Source: Promethearchaeota archaeon (GTDB lineage: Archaea > Asgardarchaeota > Lokiarchaeia > Sigyniarchaeales > SOKP01). From it: DNA of 64,000 bases. Below the pieces are notes generated by a model. That model worked only from the letters and a program-made list of their open reading frames with translations, searched no databases and had not been told where the DNA came from. The stretch lies in assembly GCA_019057795.1 (NCBI GenBank), contig JAHLWS010000079.1, positions 36,155-100,154 of the forward strand, written 5' to 3'. The position numbers were made by a program, and so were the translations under genes. Below, piece by piece: positions 35,269 to 41,523 of the stretch (within the stretch, counting starts at the first letter, position 1; each line of letters opens with the position of its first letter).

Positions 35269-35530
35269 TTCAAGTTCTATAATATAATTTTAGCAATATA
35301 TAATTTGATATAATAAAAATGATTTTACTCTAATTCTATTTGAGTATTTTAAATTTTATAAATTATAATAAAAAAAATGTAATAAAAAAAAAGGGGGAAA
35401 TTCAAAAACCAATAAAAAGTAAAAATTTTCTCCCATTCCAAGAGCATTTTGTGCGTTTCTATTATTCTGATATTTCCTTTAATATATATTTATTTTTGAT
35501 GCGTGTTCTAAACTACTACTACGTTAATAC

Positions 35531-35808
35531 TTAATAACGTTTTGATCTATAATCCTCGCGCGGTCCTCTTTCGACTATAGTTAAGTCAGTTGCTTGAGGC
35601 CCTTTCTGGCCTTCTGTGATCTCAAATTCTACGATATCACCTTCATAGATGATCTTAAATTCGTTATCATCTCCTTTGATTGCTGAGAAGTGAACGAATA
35701 TATCACCCGAACCATCTTCACGAGTTATAAATCCAAATCCTTTTCTAGAGTCTTTCTTTATAGAAATTCTTTTCTAGAGTCAAACCATTTTACGGTTCCT
35801 TTTACCAT
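35531..35808 (-). CDS. csp: Cold-shock domain protein (82 aa once the 29-nt insert is removed), not in ORF track
   Basis: [13 protein letters not shown]|[21 protein letters not shown]...GQKGPQA; intact RNP1 and RNP2; the unspliced frame stops after 16 aa. Confidence 0.9.
35743..35771 (-). other. Candidate 29-nt BHB (tRNA-type) intron in csp mRNA
   Basis: CU-CUAG-AAA-AG on both strands forms h-B-H-B-h'; closing UUUCU/AGAAA hairpin; canonical cuts remove exactly 29 nt and restore the frame. Confidence 0.65.
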
Positions 35809-36274
35809 TGAACTTACACTTATGTTTTTATTATGTTTACCAATATATTATATACTTTTAAAGCAAAGTTTTTTAAAATTTTTTAAAGAAACTTTTGTTA
35901 ATAATAGTAGTAAAAGATAAAAAATCTTCGCTTTTTAAAATGCTGTAATTACAAGTAAACAAATTGAAAACTCGTTTTGTGATTTTGATCTTAAAAAATA
36001 TATTTAAAAACTGACTGATTTACTTCTTGGTCATTGGAATCCAATTGTTGAAAACTTCTTAGAGATTCTTGGATTAATTTGAAATCAATATCAATTTTCT
36101 GATTTAAATGTTTAATTGTCATAATAAGTTTAATAAAGAAATTTTGCATTAATTTTTTATTTTCAAAAATTACTATGGATGGTTTTGATAAAATATTAGT
36201 GAAATACGAATGTATTGATAAATTAAATGGTGAAAGAAGGAAATAACAACTAGATATTATTAATTACTTACTTA

Positions 36275-37933
36275 TTAAAATTCTTTACAGATCAAATATA
36301 ATAAAGTAGAAATTGTATCGTTTGTACAGTCTATTATTATGTTCTTATAGTTTTCCTTCCAATTTGGAGTTTTATATTTTGTAATAAATCTTTTATTAAT
36401 TTTTTCTTTAATTTTTGTCCTTGACCAACTAGGAAATTGTTTTTTAATAATATTTTCTTCAATATATTTCAAACTTTTATCTTGTATCGCTAAATCCTCT
36501 GCTAATTCAATTAATCTTCGTGTTTTAATTCGATTCTTTGTATAAAATTCCTTTATTTCAAAAGAATCTGTAAAGAAATTAGAAAGTTGTTCTAATTGAA
36601 AAAAATCACTTTTTCCATAAGAATATAACTTAAAACCTTCGTATGTCGCAAGTAATTCATTAAATAAGTCCAGTTGATTTTGATAAAAATCTAAGTCAAA
36701 ATTTAAACACTCAAATTTGATAATCTTTTTCCTAAAAAATTCACAATCTTCTTCGCAAAAATGACAAGGGAGAGTAAATATATTAACATTGATGTCAAAT
36801 CCTTTTCTAATACCTTTCCATATAATATTAGTTATGATACAAGGAAAATTAAAAATTCGTTCAATTTTACCATTTGGATAACAAATATGGGTATATTCAA
36901 CATCAAGAACTAAAAATCTTGATTTTTTGAATTTTTCGAAATTAAATAAAGTTTGGTTTTCATTAAGAAAGTTTCTTAGAAATTTTTGTGTTTCTTTGAT
37001 TACTTTTTGTTTAATATCTTCAATATCCCCCTTATAATTAGTTAAATACTTTAGATTTAGCTTTTGTTCTTCATTAACATTATATTGCTCCAAATTATCC
37101 CTATTCGATATTAATAAAAACAAACGGATGAATTCAAATATTAATTTCTTTTTTATAAAATATAATGCTTTTTCTTCATATCTAAAGTAATCTTCAGATT
37201 CAAATGGATTAAACTCATTAATTAATTCGTAACATTGAGAGTACCAGGGCTCCGAATTCAGAGGATTTAAATCATTTATATTAAAGATACCTCTCAAAAA
37301 TTTACTGGATGAATCAACAAAAGGGAAAAAAATGGAAGGTAATAAATCCCCCTTCATAAATTTTAACTGAATATTAGGTAAAACATTTTCAGTAATATAT
37401 TCTGTTTCTTCGAAACACCATAATTCTAAATTTTTATGTTTCTTTAATGTGTCTATCATTATTTTTTCAAGATTTTGGCAAAAACAATCATCTGGTATAC
37501 CAAAAATAGAACAGTATAGAGGAATTTTTTCGAATATTTTATATACAAATCCATTTACTTCGACAAAATATCTTGCACAACCTGCAAGAGTACCAAAAAT
37601 ATTTTTCTCAATTCCTAATTTTTTTTTTTTTGAAATATTATTTTCTTGATTAAATTTTAACGGTAAACATTTACCAGGATGGATATCATAAATAATTCTA
37701 ATATTTTCTTTATTTTCCGCATATGAGATTGCCCAAAGAAATGGGATCTCATTAATTGGCTCATTATTTAATTCTTGATTTTTTCGGGGCCATTCTTTAG
37801 CTTTTATATGTGAAAGTATAGTGACGATTCCGAGTTTATTTTCATAAAGGTACTGAGCTATCTCTATAAGTGAAAATATTTCTTTTAAATCTTCTAAGAA
37901 TCGTTCTTCTTTTTTTAAATCAATTTTTATCAT
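36275..37933 (-). CDS. Protein with C-terminal DEDD/RNase-H-like 3'-5' exonuclease domain
   Basis: VLDVEY (ExoI), SYGKSD (ExoII), SLK and CTND (ExoIII); N-terminal half unrecognised. Confidence 0.55.
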   Translation of the reverse strand: MIKIDLKKEERFLEDLKEIFSLIEIAQYLYENKLGIVTILSHIKAKEWPRKNQELNNEPINEIPFLWAISYAENKENIRIIYDIHPGKCLPLKFNQENNISKKKKLGIEKNIFGTLAGCARYFVEVNGFVYKIFEKIPLYCSIFGIPDDCFCQNLEKIMIDTLKKHKNLELWCFEETEYITENVLPNIQLKFMKGDLLPSIFFPFVDSSSKFLRGIFNINDLNPLNSEPWYSQCYELINEFNPFESEDYFRYEEKALYFIKKKLIFEFIRLFLLISNRDNLEQYNVNEEQKLNLKYLTNYKGDIEDIKQKVIKETQKFLRNFLNENQTLFNFEKFKKSRFLVLDVEYTHICYPNGKIERIFNFPCIITNIIWKGIRKGFDINVNIFTLPCHFCEEDCEFFRKKIIKFECLNFDLDFYQNQLDLFNELLATYEGFKLYSYGKSDFFQLEQLSNFFTDSFEIKEFYTKNRIKTRRLIELAEDLAIQDKSLKYIEENIIKKQFPSWSRTKIKEKINKRFITKYKTPNWKENYKNIIIDCTNDTISTLLYLICKEF

Positions 37934-37942
37934 AATTATCTC

Positions 37943-39019
37943 TTAAAATAATTCTATTCCGAATTTACCACTCCCAAACTGAGATGGATCAATTCCTTGA
38001 GATTGCATTGATGGAGATAATATTTTTCTATTTTGACAGAAAGCATTATTTGAATCACTATATGAACAAGGTGAACATTCATCACAAAGGCAATCTCTAA
38101 TGCTAATAGCAAAATAATGTCCTAATGAATAAAGCATTTGGTGAATTTTTTTTAAAGCAATGTTATATCTGTATTTTTTGAATTTGTTTTTTTTCCAAAT
38201 CCATATTACGGCATTCTCCCACATTTTTAAATCAATCTTTTTTGAATAAGGGGGACAGGAAAATGTTTTTCCGTAGGATTTACAACTTTCTCTACATAAT
38301 GGATCTATTACTTTTATTTGATCTATTTGAATAATTTCAATTTTTTCATACAATTTTGGATGATCCTTAACAAATTGATTACAATATTCTTTAATTTCAT
38401 CAAAAGATGCTTGTTGAAAAATCTGATTGGAAGGATTTTTAATATGATAAATTTCAGATAAATTTTTATCGTTTGTGAAAATACATCCGCATCTATTTAA
38501 TGAATGAGCATCAGTAAGTTGAAAATCAAATCCAGCTTTAGTAAGTGTTTTAATACAATCAATCTGTACAGCTTCCATACTTATTTGTTTTAATGATGGT
38601 TTTTTACATTTCTCACCTTTTATACTTGAACAAGGTCGGCATTTCTTACATGAACCTCCAGAAAATACTACATTCTTATGCCCATTGAAACTAATTAGAT
38701 TATTAAGTTGTTGTGAAATTCTTTGAATTTCATATTCTTTTTGATTATTTAGAAATCTTAATTTAAATCTGGAATCTTCTTCATTGAATCTATATGAAGT
38801 AGCGAACAAAATTACCCATTTATAACCATTTTTCTTAATTTTTTTGTATTCAGAAAGGGAATAAGGAGGGCAAGAGTATTTTCTATTAAAATTCTTACAC
38901 CCAAATTTGCAAAAATACTTTGCTCTCTCATCAAAAATAATCTCATTAAATGGAACAGATTTAATGAAAGCAATATTGCTTTTATTAAAATAATTTTCAA
39001 CTTGATTCTTAAGATTCAT
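37943..39019 (-). CDS. Tandem DUF2284 metal-binding protein
   Basis: Two copies of C..(G/S)C..(F/Y)....SCPP, each followed by CxxC..C and SM...(G/Q)ID. Confidence 0.75.
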   Translation of the reverse strand: MNLKNQVENYFNKSNIAFIKSVPFNEIIFDERAKYFCKFGCKNFNRKYSCPPYSLSEYKKIKKNGYKWVILFATSYRFNEEDSRFKLRFLNNQKEYEIQRISQQLNNLISFNGHKNVVFSGGSCKKCRPCSSIKGEKCKKPSLKQISMEAVQIDCIKTLTKAGFDFQLTDAHSLNRCGCIFTNDKNLSEIYHIKNPSNQIFQQASFDEIKEYCNQFVKDHPKLYEKIEIIQIDQIKVIDPLCRESCKSYGKTFSCPPYSKKIDLKMWENAVIWIWKKNKFKKYRYNIALKKIHQMLYSLGHYFAISIRDCLCDECSPCSYSDSNNAFCQNRKILSPSMQSQGIDPSQFGSGKFGIELF

Positions 39020-40143
39020 TATTGATCACCTAAAAGATATTTAAAACAATTAGGATCAGGGGAAAAATAAATCAATTCTTCTAGATCTTTTGGTTCTATA
39101 TTAACTTCTTGACATAAAATTCTTTGAGCTACACATTTACCCCTGCATTCTTCAATATACTTACAACTTTTACATGGTTCATTAATTTTTTTATATCCTT
39201 CCATAACAAAATTCCTAAATAATTTAAAATTTTTAGAATACCATATCTCTTTAAAATTTTGGCTATATATATTGCCCGCATTAAATTTTTTAAGATTTTT
39301 CCAAGCTGGACACATAACAACATCTCCATCTGGAAGTATTAAAGGTGCATCAAAACCTCCTCTGCAATAATGGGTCTTCTCTAAATTAAACAAATGTTCT
39401 TTATTAAATAATAATAAGAAATTAATGGGATGTCCAATCCTAATTTCAATTTTTTTTTGTATTTGATTATTCTCGAGGATTGAAATCAGTTTTAAAGTTA
39501 ATTCTTTAAACTGCCGTTTATTAAGTATAAGTTTTTGATCATTACCTCTACCTTGAGGTACAAATCTTAAGAAGTGAATTTTTAGAAATCCTTTTTCAAT
39601 ACAAAATTTAATAATTTCTTCAAGATATTTAAGATTCTTTTTGAAAGGTACTATGTTTGCTTCATAAGAGAGATTATTTTTTCTTAATTTATCAATAGAA
39701 TCTTCAATAAGATTAAACGAATTTTTAACTCCATTTATTTTTTCAATAAGCTCTTTATTATGTCCTTGAATATTTAAAATAATAGAAATTCTATCCTTAT
39801 ATTGAGATAAATAATTGATTATATGGTCATTTAAACTAGATCTATTATTTTTTTTATCAATAATTATTCCCGAAGTATAAATTATGATAGAAATGTTTAG
39901 ATCTATTAAAAAATCAATCAATTCTTTAAATTTGGGGTATAAGAAAGATTCTCCTCCAGATAAAGAAACTGTATTTATCTTAAATTCATTTTTTACTTCT
40001 TTTATGATCTTAGCTAATTTTGAAAAATTAAGAAATTTATCCTTTTTTAAACTAGAATTACTACTACAATAGACACAGTGAAGTGTACATTTATGTGTTA
40101 ATTCAATACTTAATTCATTTAAACTATTTGTTATTCTATACAT
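39019..40143 (-). CDS. Radical SAM protein with SPASM domain
   Basis: CTLHCVYC and SGGE; CRGG, DGDVVMCP, CKSC...CRGKC and DPNC SPASM motifs. Confidence 0.9.
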   Translation of the reverse strand: MYRITNSLNELSIELTHKCTLHCVYCSSNSSLKKDKFLNFSKLAKIIKEVKNEFKINTVSLSGGESFLYPKFKELIDFLIDLNISIIIYTSGIIIDKKNNRSSLNDHIINYLSQYKDRISIILNIQGHNKELIEKINGVKNSFNLIEDSIDKLRKNNLSYEANIVPFKKNLKYLEEIIKFCIEKGFLKIHFLRFVPQGRGNDQKLILNKRQFKELTLKLISILENNQIQKKIEIRIGHPINFLLLFNKEHLFNLEKTHYCRGGFDAPLILPDGDVVMCPAWKNLKKFNAGNIYSQNFKEIWYSKNFKLFRNFVMEGYKKINEPCKSCKYIEECRGKCVAQRILCQEVNIEPKDLEELIYFSPDPNCFKYLLGDQ

Positions 40144-40325
40144 CTCGATTCTAACCACTCTTTATCTCTTTTATAGGCTTTTGGATTAATATCTTCATCA
40201 TCAACTCTAATAAAGAGACTTAAATCATCATTACCACAATTTAAACATTTTGAAATTAGGTGTAATCCTTCGGAACCACTATATACTTTATTACACTTAA
40301 GACATTTTAAACCCAATTTAATCAC
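40131..40325 (-). CDS. 64-aa zinc-ribbon/Cys peptide
   Basis: CLKC and CLNC; overlaps both neighbouring genes. Confidence 0.7.
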   Translation of the reverse strand: MIKLGLKCLKCNKVYSGSEGLHLISKCLNCGNDDLSLFIRVDDEDINPKAYKRDKEWLESRCIE

Positions 40326-41089
40326 CTTATATATTTTTTTGGAATTTCATCCAAAATATTTTTAGAATATATATTAGAATTATAAACTTTATGAATTAAA
40401 TCATACATATTTGATTTTGGATTCTTTTTCTTATATCTTTCATTATATCTGTAGAAATAACATTGCTTATTTTTAATACAAGTTTTGCAAAAATCTTTCC
40501 ATTCATCCATTTTTTTTTCATCCTTAAATAAATGAACTAGTTCAAGTGTCTCTTTTTGGTATAAATCACTATAATCTTCATCCTTACTCTGAATTCTATT
40601 AAGAAAATTATTTAATTTTCTATTCCATTTTTCGAGATGCCATGATACATTATGACCTATACCAATCGAATTATCTTTGAAAATAATTTCTCTTCTTTTT
40701 AATAAATGTATCTCTGATGCTTCAAATCCACATACAAATCCATTGTTATTAAATATTTTAGTCTCTTGATAATAGGTCTTACCAATTTTATAATATCCAA
40801 TGATATATCTCTTTTTTGTATTTTGATCTTGAGTTCTAAATATTATATATTTTTCATTTGTATCTCGCTTAATTAGACTCCTTACGCCTTTTAGATTACA
40901 GATTGAATTATAAGTATGGTTTTCAAAAACAGGAAATTCAAAATGGATTTTACCATCACTAAGTTTAAATAAAAATAGATTCCGATGAGCGAGATCATTG
41001 GATATATTAATAAAACATCCTTCTAGAAAAACTCTAGTTGAATAGTAATTAAACAAAACAATATCTCTATCGTAGTTGATATTTAACAC
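40322..41089 (-). CDS. Hypothetical protein, Nmad2/3-like (nucleotide-modification-associated)
   Basis: P.FE..TY...C....R, YIIFRT and RYIIGYY pattern; C-terminal CKTC...C; family call is from recall only. Confidence 0.4.
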   Translation of the reverse strand: MLNINYDRDIVLFNYYSTRVFLEGCFINISNDLAHRNLFLFKLSDGKIHFEFPVFENHTYNSICNLKGVRSLIKRDTNEKYIIFRTQDQNTKKRYIIGYYKIGKTYYQETKIFNNNGFVCGFEASEIHLLKRREIIFKDNSIGIGHNVSWHLEKWNRKLNNFLNRIQSKDEDYSDLYQKETLELVHLFKDEKKMDEWKDFCKTCIKNKQCYFYRYNERYKKKNPKSNMYDLIHKVYNSNIYSKNILDEIPKKYIR

Positions 41090-41523
41090 CGCTTACCGAA
41101 GATTTTTACCTTAATACTATATATCCTCATTTAATCATTTATATTTATTGCATAATTTAAAGAAAAAAAAGGTTAAAAATTAAACTAGTTAAACAGAAAT
41201 AATAAAACGAATAAAACTAAATTTAATTTATTTAAATTTAAAGATTGTAAAATTTTTTCCAATTCATCATAATAATTTGAATCTAATGGGAACAAGAGCT
41301 AGCATATAAACATCCAATAAAATTTTATATTCGATTAAAGCACATATCTATATCTGTACTCTTCACTTTAGAATTAGATACCATATATAATAAATTTTGT
41401 TAAATTTTGTTAAAAAAACACTATTAGAGATAAGATTTTTTGTAGTTTTTTAGCCTATATTTTATTTTTAAATATCAATTGAATTTTAAAAGTTATAAGT
41501 GAGATTTGATTTAAATATATATT

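Follow-up and report, generated by a model that had tools for sequence, protein, structure and literature searches.

A predicted bulge-helix-bulge intron in a cold-shock protein gene of an Asgard archaeon, with covarying inserts at the same site in relatives

A cold-shock protein gene (csp) of a Promethearchaeota genome (G000) is interrupted by 29 nucleotides (nt), positions 35743-35771, which are very probably a genuine bulge-helix-bulge (BHB), or tRNA-type, intron of the csp pre-mRNA; we infer cleavage and ligation at the locus from the sequence. The gene lies on the minus strand, at 35531-35808 of the window, the whole stretch of 64,000 nt that was analysed. A tRNA-type intron in an Asgard mRNA, as proposed in a preliminary description of this DNA, gains its main support from csp homologues that retain the BHB via compensatory changes. 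The assembly to which the window belongs is metagenome-derived (4.95 Mb, 31% GC, 87 contigs; scored 100% complete, contamination 7.5%), and its named relatives belong to the Promethearchaeia.

The interrupted csp gene and its BHB

Read without excision, the csp frame opens with the ATG at 35808 and terminates after 16 aa at a UAA (35760-35758), and the remainder of the cold-shock domain, past this stop, continues in a different frame. The 13-nt direct repeat GACTCTAGAAAAG occurs twice in the gene with a spacing of 16 nt. Excision of 35743-35771 in silico yields an 82-aa Csp ending in KRY, which is 99% identical to the intronless orthologue of relative G005, with one residue different. Exon 2 alone matches the Pfam CSD profile (positions 13-64 of 66, E=2e-19). 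The Pfam match and the restored frame bear out the earlier view of an otherwise intact 82-aa Csp broken at the start of RNP1, and the 16-aa peptide then expected from unspliced mRNA is what the frame gives. Besides the insert, the gene carries no second lesion. Four additional csp paralogues of G000 are all uninterrupted. The features of the gene and of its predicted BHB are as follows.

35772-35808, minus strand: csp exon 1, 37 nt, encoding 12 aa and the first base of a Lys codon; it contains the stretch ATGGTAAAAGGAACCG
35743-35771, minus strand: predicted 29-nt BHB intron, from base 3 of bulge 1 to base 2 of bulge 2, holding the in-frame UAA
35531-35742, minus strand: csp exon 2, which opens with RNP1 (KGFGFI) and closes with the stop codon TAA at 35531-35533
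Predicted spliced junction, minus strand: ...TGGTTTGACTCTAGAA joined to AAGGATTTGG, 29 nt shorter than the unspliced form
35740-35779, minus strand: hBHBh' core, CU-CUAG-AAA-AG ... CU-CUAG-AAA-AG, located by BHB search
35779-35778 (CU) with 35741-35740 (AG), minus strand: outer helix h, 2 bp
35777-35774 (CUAG) with 35748-35745 (CUAG), minus strand: central helix H, 4 bp
35773-35771 (AAA) and 35744-35742 (AAA), minus strand: the two bulges, each 3' of the central helix
35770-35769 (AG) with 35750-35749 (CU), minus strand: inner helix h', 2 bp
35753-35766, minus strand: intron hairpin UUUCU / AUAA / AGAAA, extending h' (RNAfold, -1.5 kcal/mol)

The G000 element is a strict hBHBh', with h and h' of 2 bp each and h' lengthened by the 5-bp hairpin, and the stop codon sits within the AUAA loop. 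This matches exactly the geometry first described, namely 2 bp, a 4-bp CUAG helix and 2 bp, with AAA bulges and a cut after bulge base 2. A frame-restoring combination of H and h' arises in just 0.26% of shuffles of the 29 nt. Both strands of H lie within a 6-nt palindrome, UCUAGA (35772-35779 and 35743-35750), whose 6-bp pairing competes with the strict BHB register, and RNAfold at low temperature picks this 6-bp register over the 4-bp helix with 3-nt bulges. Minimum-energy folds predicted for 4-15 C include the H helix, whose probability declines from 0.96 at 4 C to 0.65 at 37 C, and the G000 BHB is the weakest of those found in its genus (g1).

In the proposed mechanism, the exon CUAG would pair with the intron CUAG between the two 3-nt AAA bulges of the csp transcript, and a heteromeric (alpha-beta)2 splicing endonuclease (EndA) would cleave after the second base of each bulge, leaving a 2',3'-cyclic phosphate and a 5'-OH. 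The exons would then be joined by RtcB, which would probably also circularise the intron. The 82-aa Csp would be encoded by the spliced mRNA alone, while unspliced RNA would give the 16-aa peptide. On the simplest reading, splicing would be obligatory and most likely constitutive.

The insert is real in DNA, as two contigs independent of the assembly both contain it. A 130-nt contig from run X3, an independent study, covers 35669-35798 with 0 mismatches, spanning part of exon 2, the whole intron and 27 nt of exon 1. The separate metagenome contig L101 has an identical island end (the low-GC island upstream of csp is described below), exon 1, intron and exon 2 start. That the insert could be an assembly artefact, or that the contig could be a chimera joined at a conserved csp segment, might be suspected from the metagenomic origin and 7.5% contamination of the genome and from the gene itself, in which sequence of one csp clade gives way to that of another near nt 43; given the mismatch-free X3 contig and the identity of L101 from the island end through the start of exon 2, we regard this as extremely improbable. 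Intronless relatives, which read GAT AGC CGT at the insert site, co-occur in samples with the intron allele.

Same-site inserts in relatives, selection and the splicing machinery

We scanned for the csp insert pattern in the genus (42 genomes), in all GTDB species representatives, in the class (161 genomes) and in metagenomes. All scans together gave 7 distinct csp sequences with 29-31-nt inserts at one site, within 1 nt. Those other than G000 are six homologous inserts that span two genera and three csp paralogue groups, distributed as follows.

Genus g1: intron-bearing csp in G000, G014 and metagenome sequence L100; central helix CUAG/CUAG
Genus g23: intron-bearing csp in G155, G157, G159 and G160; non-palindromic central helices

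Cuts between bulge positions 2 and 3 give an intact Csp frame in all 7 sequences, reading in frame through ...WF(D/N)x(R)KG(F/Y)GFI, and the motif was found in the sole frame-restoring register. The central helices comprise CUAG/CUAG, UCGU/GCGA (twice), CCGC/GCGG and CCAG/CUGG. Pairing in H is intact in 28 of 28 cells and in h' in 13 of 14 (AU, GU, UA and GC types), with AAN and AAA as bulges. Each of the six homologous inserts has a hairpin at the position seen in G000, though of another sequence. The exon-exon helix h is reduced to 0-1 bp in g23, which corresponds to the relaxed HBh' form.

For the covariation test, cores were registered by BHB search and aligned gap-free; they are structure-fitted in this sense, yet the register is independently pinned by frame restoration. 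MAFFT alignments of the inserts were out of structural register and were excluded from the analysis. All four H pairs are altered on both sides among the registered cores, and the covariation score is 0.893 versus 0.363 +/- 0.074 for shuffled sequences (0 of 500 reach 0.893) and 0.03-0.25 when the partners are slid. Shuffle p values for single sequences range over 0.0008-0.019, with the six sequences of intact h' at 0.0008-0.0055 and L100, which has the h' mismatch, at 0.019. The four types of helix amount in effect to independent draws. A 31-nt intron is common to G014 and L100, and between its two versions the hairpin shows two fully compensated pair changes and one change from G.U to G-C.

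A same-site insert with a covarying BHB in related csp loci is thus found in six homologues, with double changes in the helix. These also answer the caveat, raised at the outset, that a chance 13-bp duplication would create such a motif by itself, as relatives lacking the direct repeat retain the BHB via compensatory changes. A target-site duplication is excluded because the g23 helices are complementary, not identical. We rejected target-site duplication or a MITE as candidates on the grounds that the g23 inserts have no direct repeats and that the 29-mer occurs as a single copy in the 4.95-Mb genome; having no other genome copy, it is therefore not a repeated mobile element.

The same inserts bear on programmed translational bypass, whereby the ribosome would hop the 29 nt between identical codons with no RNA processing involved. 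The repeated UCU AGA AAA of G000 provides matched take-off and landing codons, and the gap includes a stop and a hairpin. Known bypass elements (T4 gene 60; Magnusiomyces mitochondrial byps) are likewise short non-coding interruptions of an open reading frame that contain a stop and a hairpin. However, the two sides are complementary rather than identical in G155, G157, G159 and G160, which have no matched landing codon at the required distance, and this lack of matching codons in g23 excludes hopping. The codons match in G000, G014 and L100 merely because CUAG is palindromic. Pairing is the conserved property, and conservation of complementarity instead of codon identity places the csp relatives outside the bypass family. 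Overall, bypass appears very improbable.

The csp exons are, from sequence comparison, under purifying selection. Values of dN/dS for G000 against the intronless G009, G005 and G020 are 0.13, 0.04 and 0.08, respectively, and the two intron-bearing genes of G014 and L100 differ by dS 0.90 and dN 0.065 (dN/dS 0.07) with their frames intact, in agreement with the undecayed exons remarked on earlier. A 245-nt contig from metatranscriptome run X20 aligns over 35461-35705 (11 mismatches, 95% identity) and ends 38 nt before the junction. It derives from a close relative, whose csp exon 2 and 3' UTR it covers, and indicates that this csp type is transcribed in nature. It is the only RNA contig obtained, and no RNA read or contig extends across the junction; the likely source run, X1, gave no contig.

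These data also weigh on the possibility that the gene is dead: one csp copy out of five would have been knocked out by a 29-nt insertion or duplication in the recent past, its RNA would never be spliced, and the BHB would be a by-product of doubling a self-complementary 13-mer. The perfect 13-nt direct repeat of G000 is what a recent duplication would leave; the four intact paralogues mean that the interrupted copy could be dispensable; the insert is absent from the closest orthologues; and no RNA crossing the junction was found. Against this stand the six same-site inserts elsewhere, which lack long direct repeats and have covarying helices, including non-palindromic ones, the frames of G014 and L100, intact over a dS of 0.9 at a dN/dS of 0.07, the absence of a second lesion in G000 and the identical allele in independent samples. 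We therefore consider a dead gene improbable and retain the intron as the preferred reading.

The machinery for such splicing is encoded in G000. The EndA catalytic triad is Tyr..His..Lys. Two EndA genes (PF01974) with open frames encode proteins of 200 and 201 aa with 32% mutual identity, one with the Y..H..K pattern and the other without the His, and from sequence the pair fits a catalytic alpha and a structural beta subunit.

C69:74165-74764, minus strand: EndA gene (PF01974)
C74:72276-72878, minus strand: EndA gene (PF01974)

RtcB is present as one intact copy with an open frame (PF01139, contig C70), so the presumed EndA and RtcB machinery, with candidate alpha and beta subunits, is in place. 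The (alpha-beta)2 EndA of Asgard archaea has an L1 loop conferring broad specificity and accepts the relaxed HBh' form (PMC5829648), and the same (alpha-beta)2 type cleaves unconventional BHBs of cbf5 pre-mRNA between bulge bases 2 and 3 (PMC2738675). Broad specificity matters here because h is just 2 bp in G000 and 0-1 bp in g23.

Predicted folding and relation to known splicing systems

Beyond splicing itself, the preliminary description had proposed that the weak, AU-rich BHB may form at low temperature only and be melted by Csp itself, making splicing temperature-gated and autoregulated. With such a switch, as an alternative to constitutive splicing, the mRNA would be spliced solely under cold conditions or when little Csp is present, a temperature-gated negative feedback functionally akin to HAC1/XBP1; it extends the main reading (splicing is assumed), and its probability is not to be added to those of the other alternatives. 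In G000, the H-helix probability drops from 0.96 (4 C) to 0.65 (37 C), the host gene product is an RNA chaperone, and csp has acquired introns repeatedly, in three paralogue groups. However, the H probability stays at 0.88-1.0 from 4 to 37 C in G014, L100, G155 and G157 (about 1.0 in three of them), and in G159 and G160 the H helix is unpredicted at every temperature. Because the homologues fold at all temperatures (four of six) or at none (two of six), folding restricted to the cold is not a conserved property. In-frame stops are to be expected as a matter of course in AT-rich inserts. Cold-only folding thus fails among the homologues, and temperature-gated, autoregulated splicing is left unsupported, as predicted folding shows no conserved temperature dependence. 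We consider the switch unlikely, attractive though it is in view of the repeated acquisition of introns by csp genes. A broader proposal, doubtful to a similar degree, is that Asgard csp introns are non-neutral, moving by recombination from one allele or paralogue to another, with the flanking exon co-converted and in G000 together with the 5.5-kb island described below, and persisting through Csp-meltable feedback or cold control. If true, they would be an archaeal counterpart of the regulated tRNA-ligase splicing of HAC1/XBP1, in the closest relatives of eukaryotes.

Constitutive splicing of a BHB intron, our preferred reading, has its nearest precedent in cbf5, for more than 20 years the sole protein gene of archaea for which tRNA-type mRNA splicing is confirmed (PMC7714728, PMC2738675). 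Our literature search returned cbf5 as the only confirmed ORF-interrupting archaeal BHB intron, together with one 5' UTR case from Haloferax. The cbf5 intron of Crenarchaeota (Watanabe 2002; Yoshinari 2006; Yokobori 2009, PMC2738675) resembles that of csp in being a short intron within the ORF, with an often relaxed BHB and cuts between bulge bases 2 and 3, in hosts with (alpha-beta)2 EndA, and with a patchy distribution through gain and loss among relatives. In contrast to cbf5, csp is another gene, in the Asgard/Promethearchaeota phylum with cold sediment hosts, and its splicing is predicted; several sequence-unrelated introns occupy one csp site in three paralogue groups, whereas cbf5 reflects one ancestral gain. 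The host being a cold-shock domain protein, the site is not the catalytic Asp codon of cbf5, and the resemblance is one of mechanism, not of site homology.

Archaeal tRNA introns (Marck and Grosjean 2003; bioRxiv 10.64898/2026.10.13.758758) share with the csp intron the hBHBh' geometry, the size range and a part of the motif supplied by the exon, and those of Asgard tRNA genes, many of which are non-canonical, also share repeated gains at sites able to form the motif. The csp case differs from them in its mRNA host and in the codon constraint (Ser/Arg/Lys-Gly) on the exon part of the motif; failure of splicing would truncate a protein in csp, whereas it truncates a tRNA in tRNA genes. The BHB in the 5' UTR of Haloferax volcanii HVO_1309 (Schwarz 2020, PMC7714728) is a further instance of EndA acting on mRNA, as predicted for csp, but it lies in a UTR and leaves the reading frame uninterrupted, while the csp intron is inside the ORF. 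HAC1/XBP1 splicing (IRE1 plus tRNA ligase/RTCB) is likewise non-spliceosomal, joined by a tRNA ligase and frame-altering; its cleavage takes place at two small stem-loops by the dedicated, stress-activated IRE1, with proven regulation, whereas for csp the presumed nuclease is the housekeeping EndA. The mechanism is already known, and what is new is the gene, the lineage and the acquisition of several different introns at one site. With a 40-nt core and a 29-nt intron, the csp locus offers a compact substrate for Asgard EndA and RtcB on mRNA.

Acquisition of the intron and other interrupted genes

The csp intron occurs in 2 of 42 genomes of the genus and is not anciently conserved in this lineage. 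Type-2 csp genes (ending KDRRF/Y) are found in 76 of 135 family genomes, and among the 30 loci read, the insert is present solely in G157, G159 and G160. G155 has an intronless type-2 csp, but a different csp paralogue of this genome carries an intron whose hairpin is the same, AGAG...CUCU. One intron hairpin in different paralogues implies repeated hits on, or conversions of, the Arg-Lys/Gly boundary where RNP1 begins. The intron is probably of a class that is sporadically gained or transferred at this one csp site. Separately, four type-2 csp genes contain one or two in-frame stops inside exon 2 (G101:C358:1434-1616, G106:C27:43936-44127, G117:C4:191942-192124 and G119:C103:8560-8742), and these may be second-site introns or pseudogenes.

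In G000, the spliced coding sequence is a mosaic of two csp clades that switches near nt 43. Nucleotides 1-43, i.e., exon 1 and 6 nt of exon 2, show 0 differences from intronless G008 and 8 from G009, whereas nucleotides 44-240 show 46 differences from G008 and 11 from G009 (for the contrast with G008, Fisher p = 6e-5). The part of the contig that lies downstream of the intron aligns collinearly with G005, G009 and G020, at identities of 88-93%. The region upstream of csp in these closest relatives corresponds to window position ~41325, 5.5 kb away, and the island that lies in between in G000 is missing there between csp and the conserved upstream flank.

35809-41325, minus strand: low-GC island of ~5.5 kb, 20-27% GC versus 31-38% in the flanks

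The edge of the island is occupied by the csp promoter region together with exon 1 and the intron. This position of the intron, in a mosaic csp, suggests arrival by recombination, and the G000 intron most likely came by recombination with an intron-bearing csp allele; it would probably have arrived with the csp 5' end, beside the 5.5-kb foreign island. The island contains a five-gene radical-SAM/DEDD-exonuclease-like operon. For its last gene, the 135 family genomes contain a single relative, in G158 (genus g23; 67% identity); an intron donor was sought at this homologue, where no csp follows, and none was found. The 2026 preprint on Asgard tRNA introns (bioRxiv 10.64898/2026.10.13.758758) leaves the route of intron arrival open and does not mention mRNA introns. 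The csp data, with unrelated inserts at one site, one intron family in two paralogues and one copy at a recombination breakpoint, bear on how such introns arrive and spread.

Two further genes of G000 appear to be interrupted in the same way. The gene for Elf1 (C70, about 101392-101423, plus strand) carries an insert of 32 nt whose BHB combines the helix CCAA/UUGG with the bulges ACA and AUU; excision of the insert gives KIFTCPN/CGEKAIKVE and restores the zinc ribbon CPNCGEK. The sole uL11 locus (C73:108504-108824, minus strand) lacks the first 25 N-terminal domain positions in frame, and GPTGINIKDV is regained when a 28-nt insert with a GCAU/AUGC helix is excised. A putative second insert was noted upstream of the 28-nt one in the uL11 region (C73:108504-109000, minus strand). 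In hppA (H+-pyrophosphatase; C56, about 49950, minus strand), the frame is lost after GDTVGDPFK, and KDTAGPSIN follows ~34 nt on in another frame. Together with Elf1 and uL11, the csp intron and its six covarying homologues would extend tRNA-type mRNA splicing to the Asgard archaea, which among prokaryotes are the nearest relatives of eukaryotes, and ORFs in these genomes would not be correctly callable without modelling of BHB introns.

We scanned both strands of the 4.95 Mb for strict hBHBh' motifs with introns of 14-70 nt whose excision fuses open frames, using the mirrored geometry (bulges 5' of the helix) as a control. The counts were 120,923 for the real versus 120,565 for the mirrored motif, and no excess of real over mirrored BHBs was present after filtering by flank ORF length, absence of a downstream start, codon-usage log-odds and junction-spanning paralogue alignments. 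The size of the mRNA-intron class in G000 is not estimable, because chance motifs, adjacent genes and open alternative frames swamp the signal in this AT-rich genome. The csp candidate ranked first in the paralogue test of the genome-wide scan.

ARAGORN detected 18 tRNA genes in G000, 10 of them with introns, despite the completeness score of 100%, which suggests that many tRNA genes of this genome are too interrupted for detection. The same preprint (bioRxiv 10.64898/2026.10.13.758758) reports many Asgard tRNA genes to be interrupted beyond detection. Finally, csp paralogues across the family (e.g., G000:C21:66736-66802) have a conserved leader, AAATGGTTTTAAAA(T/G)TGGTAAAAGGAAC. It repeats AAATGGTTT of the coding GTAAAATGGTTT, located about 30 nt downstream, overlaps a TTG/GTG start and could be a candidate Csp-binding or cold-box-like element.
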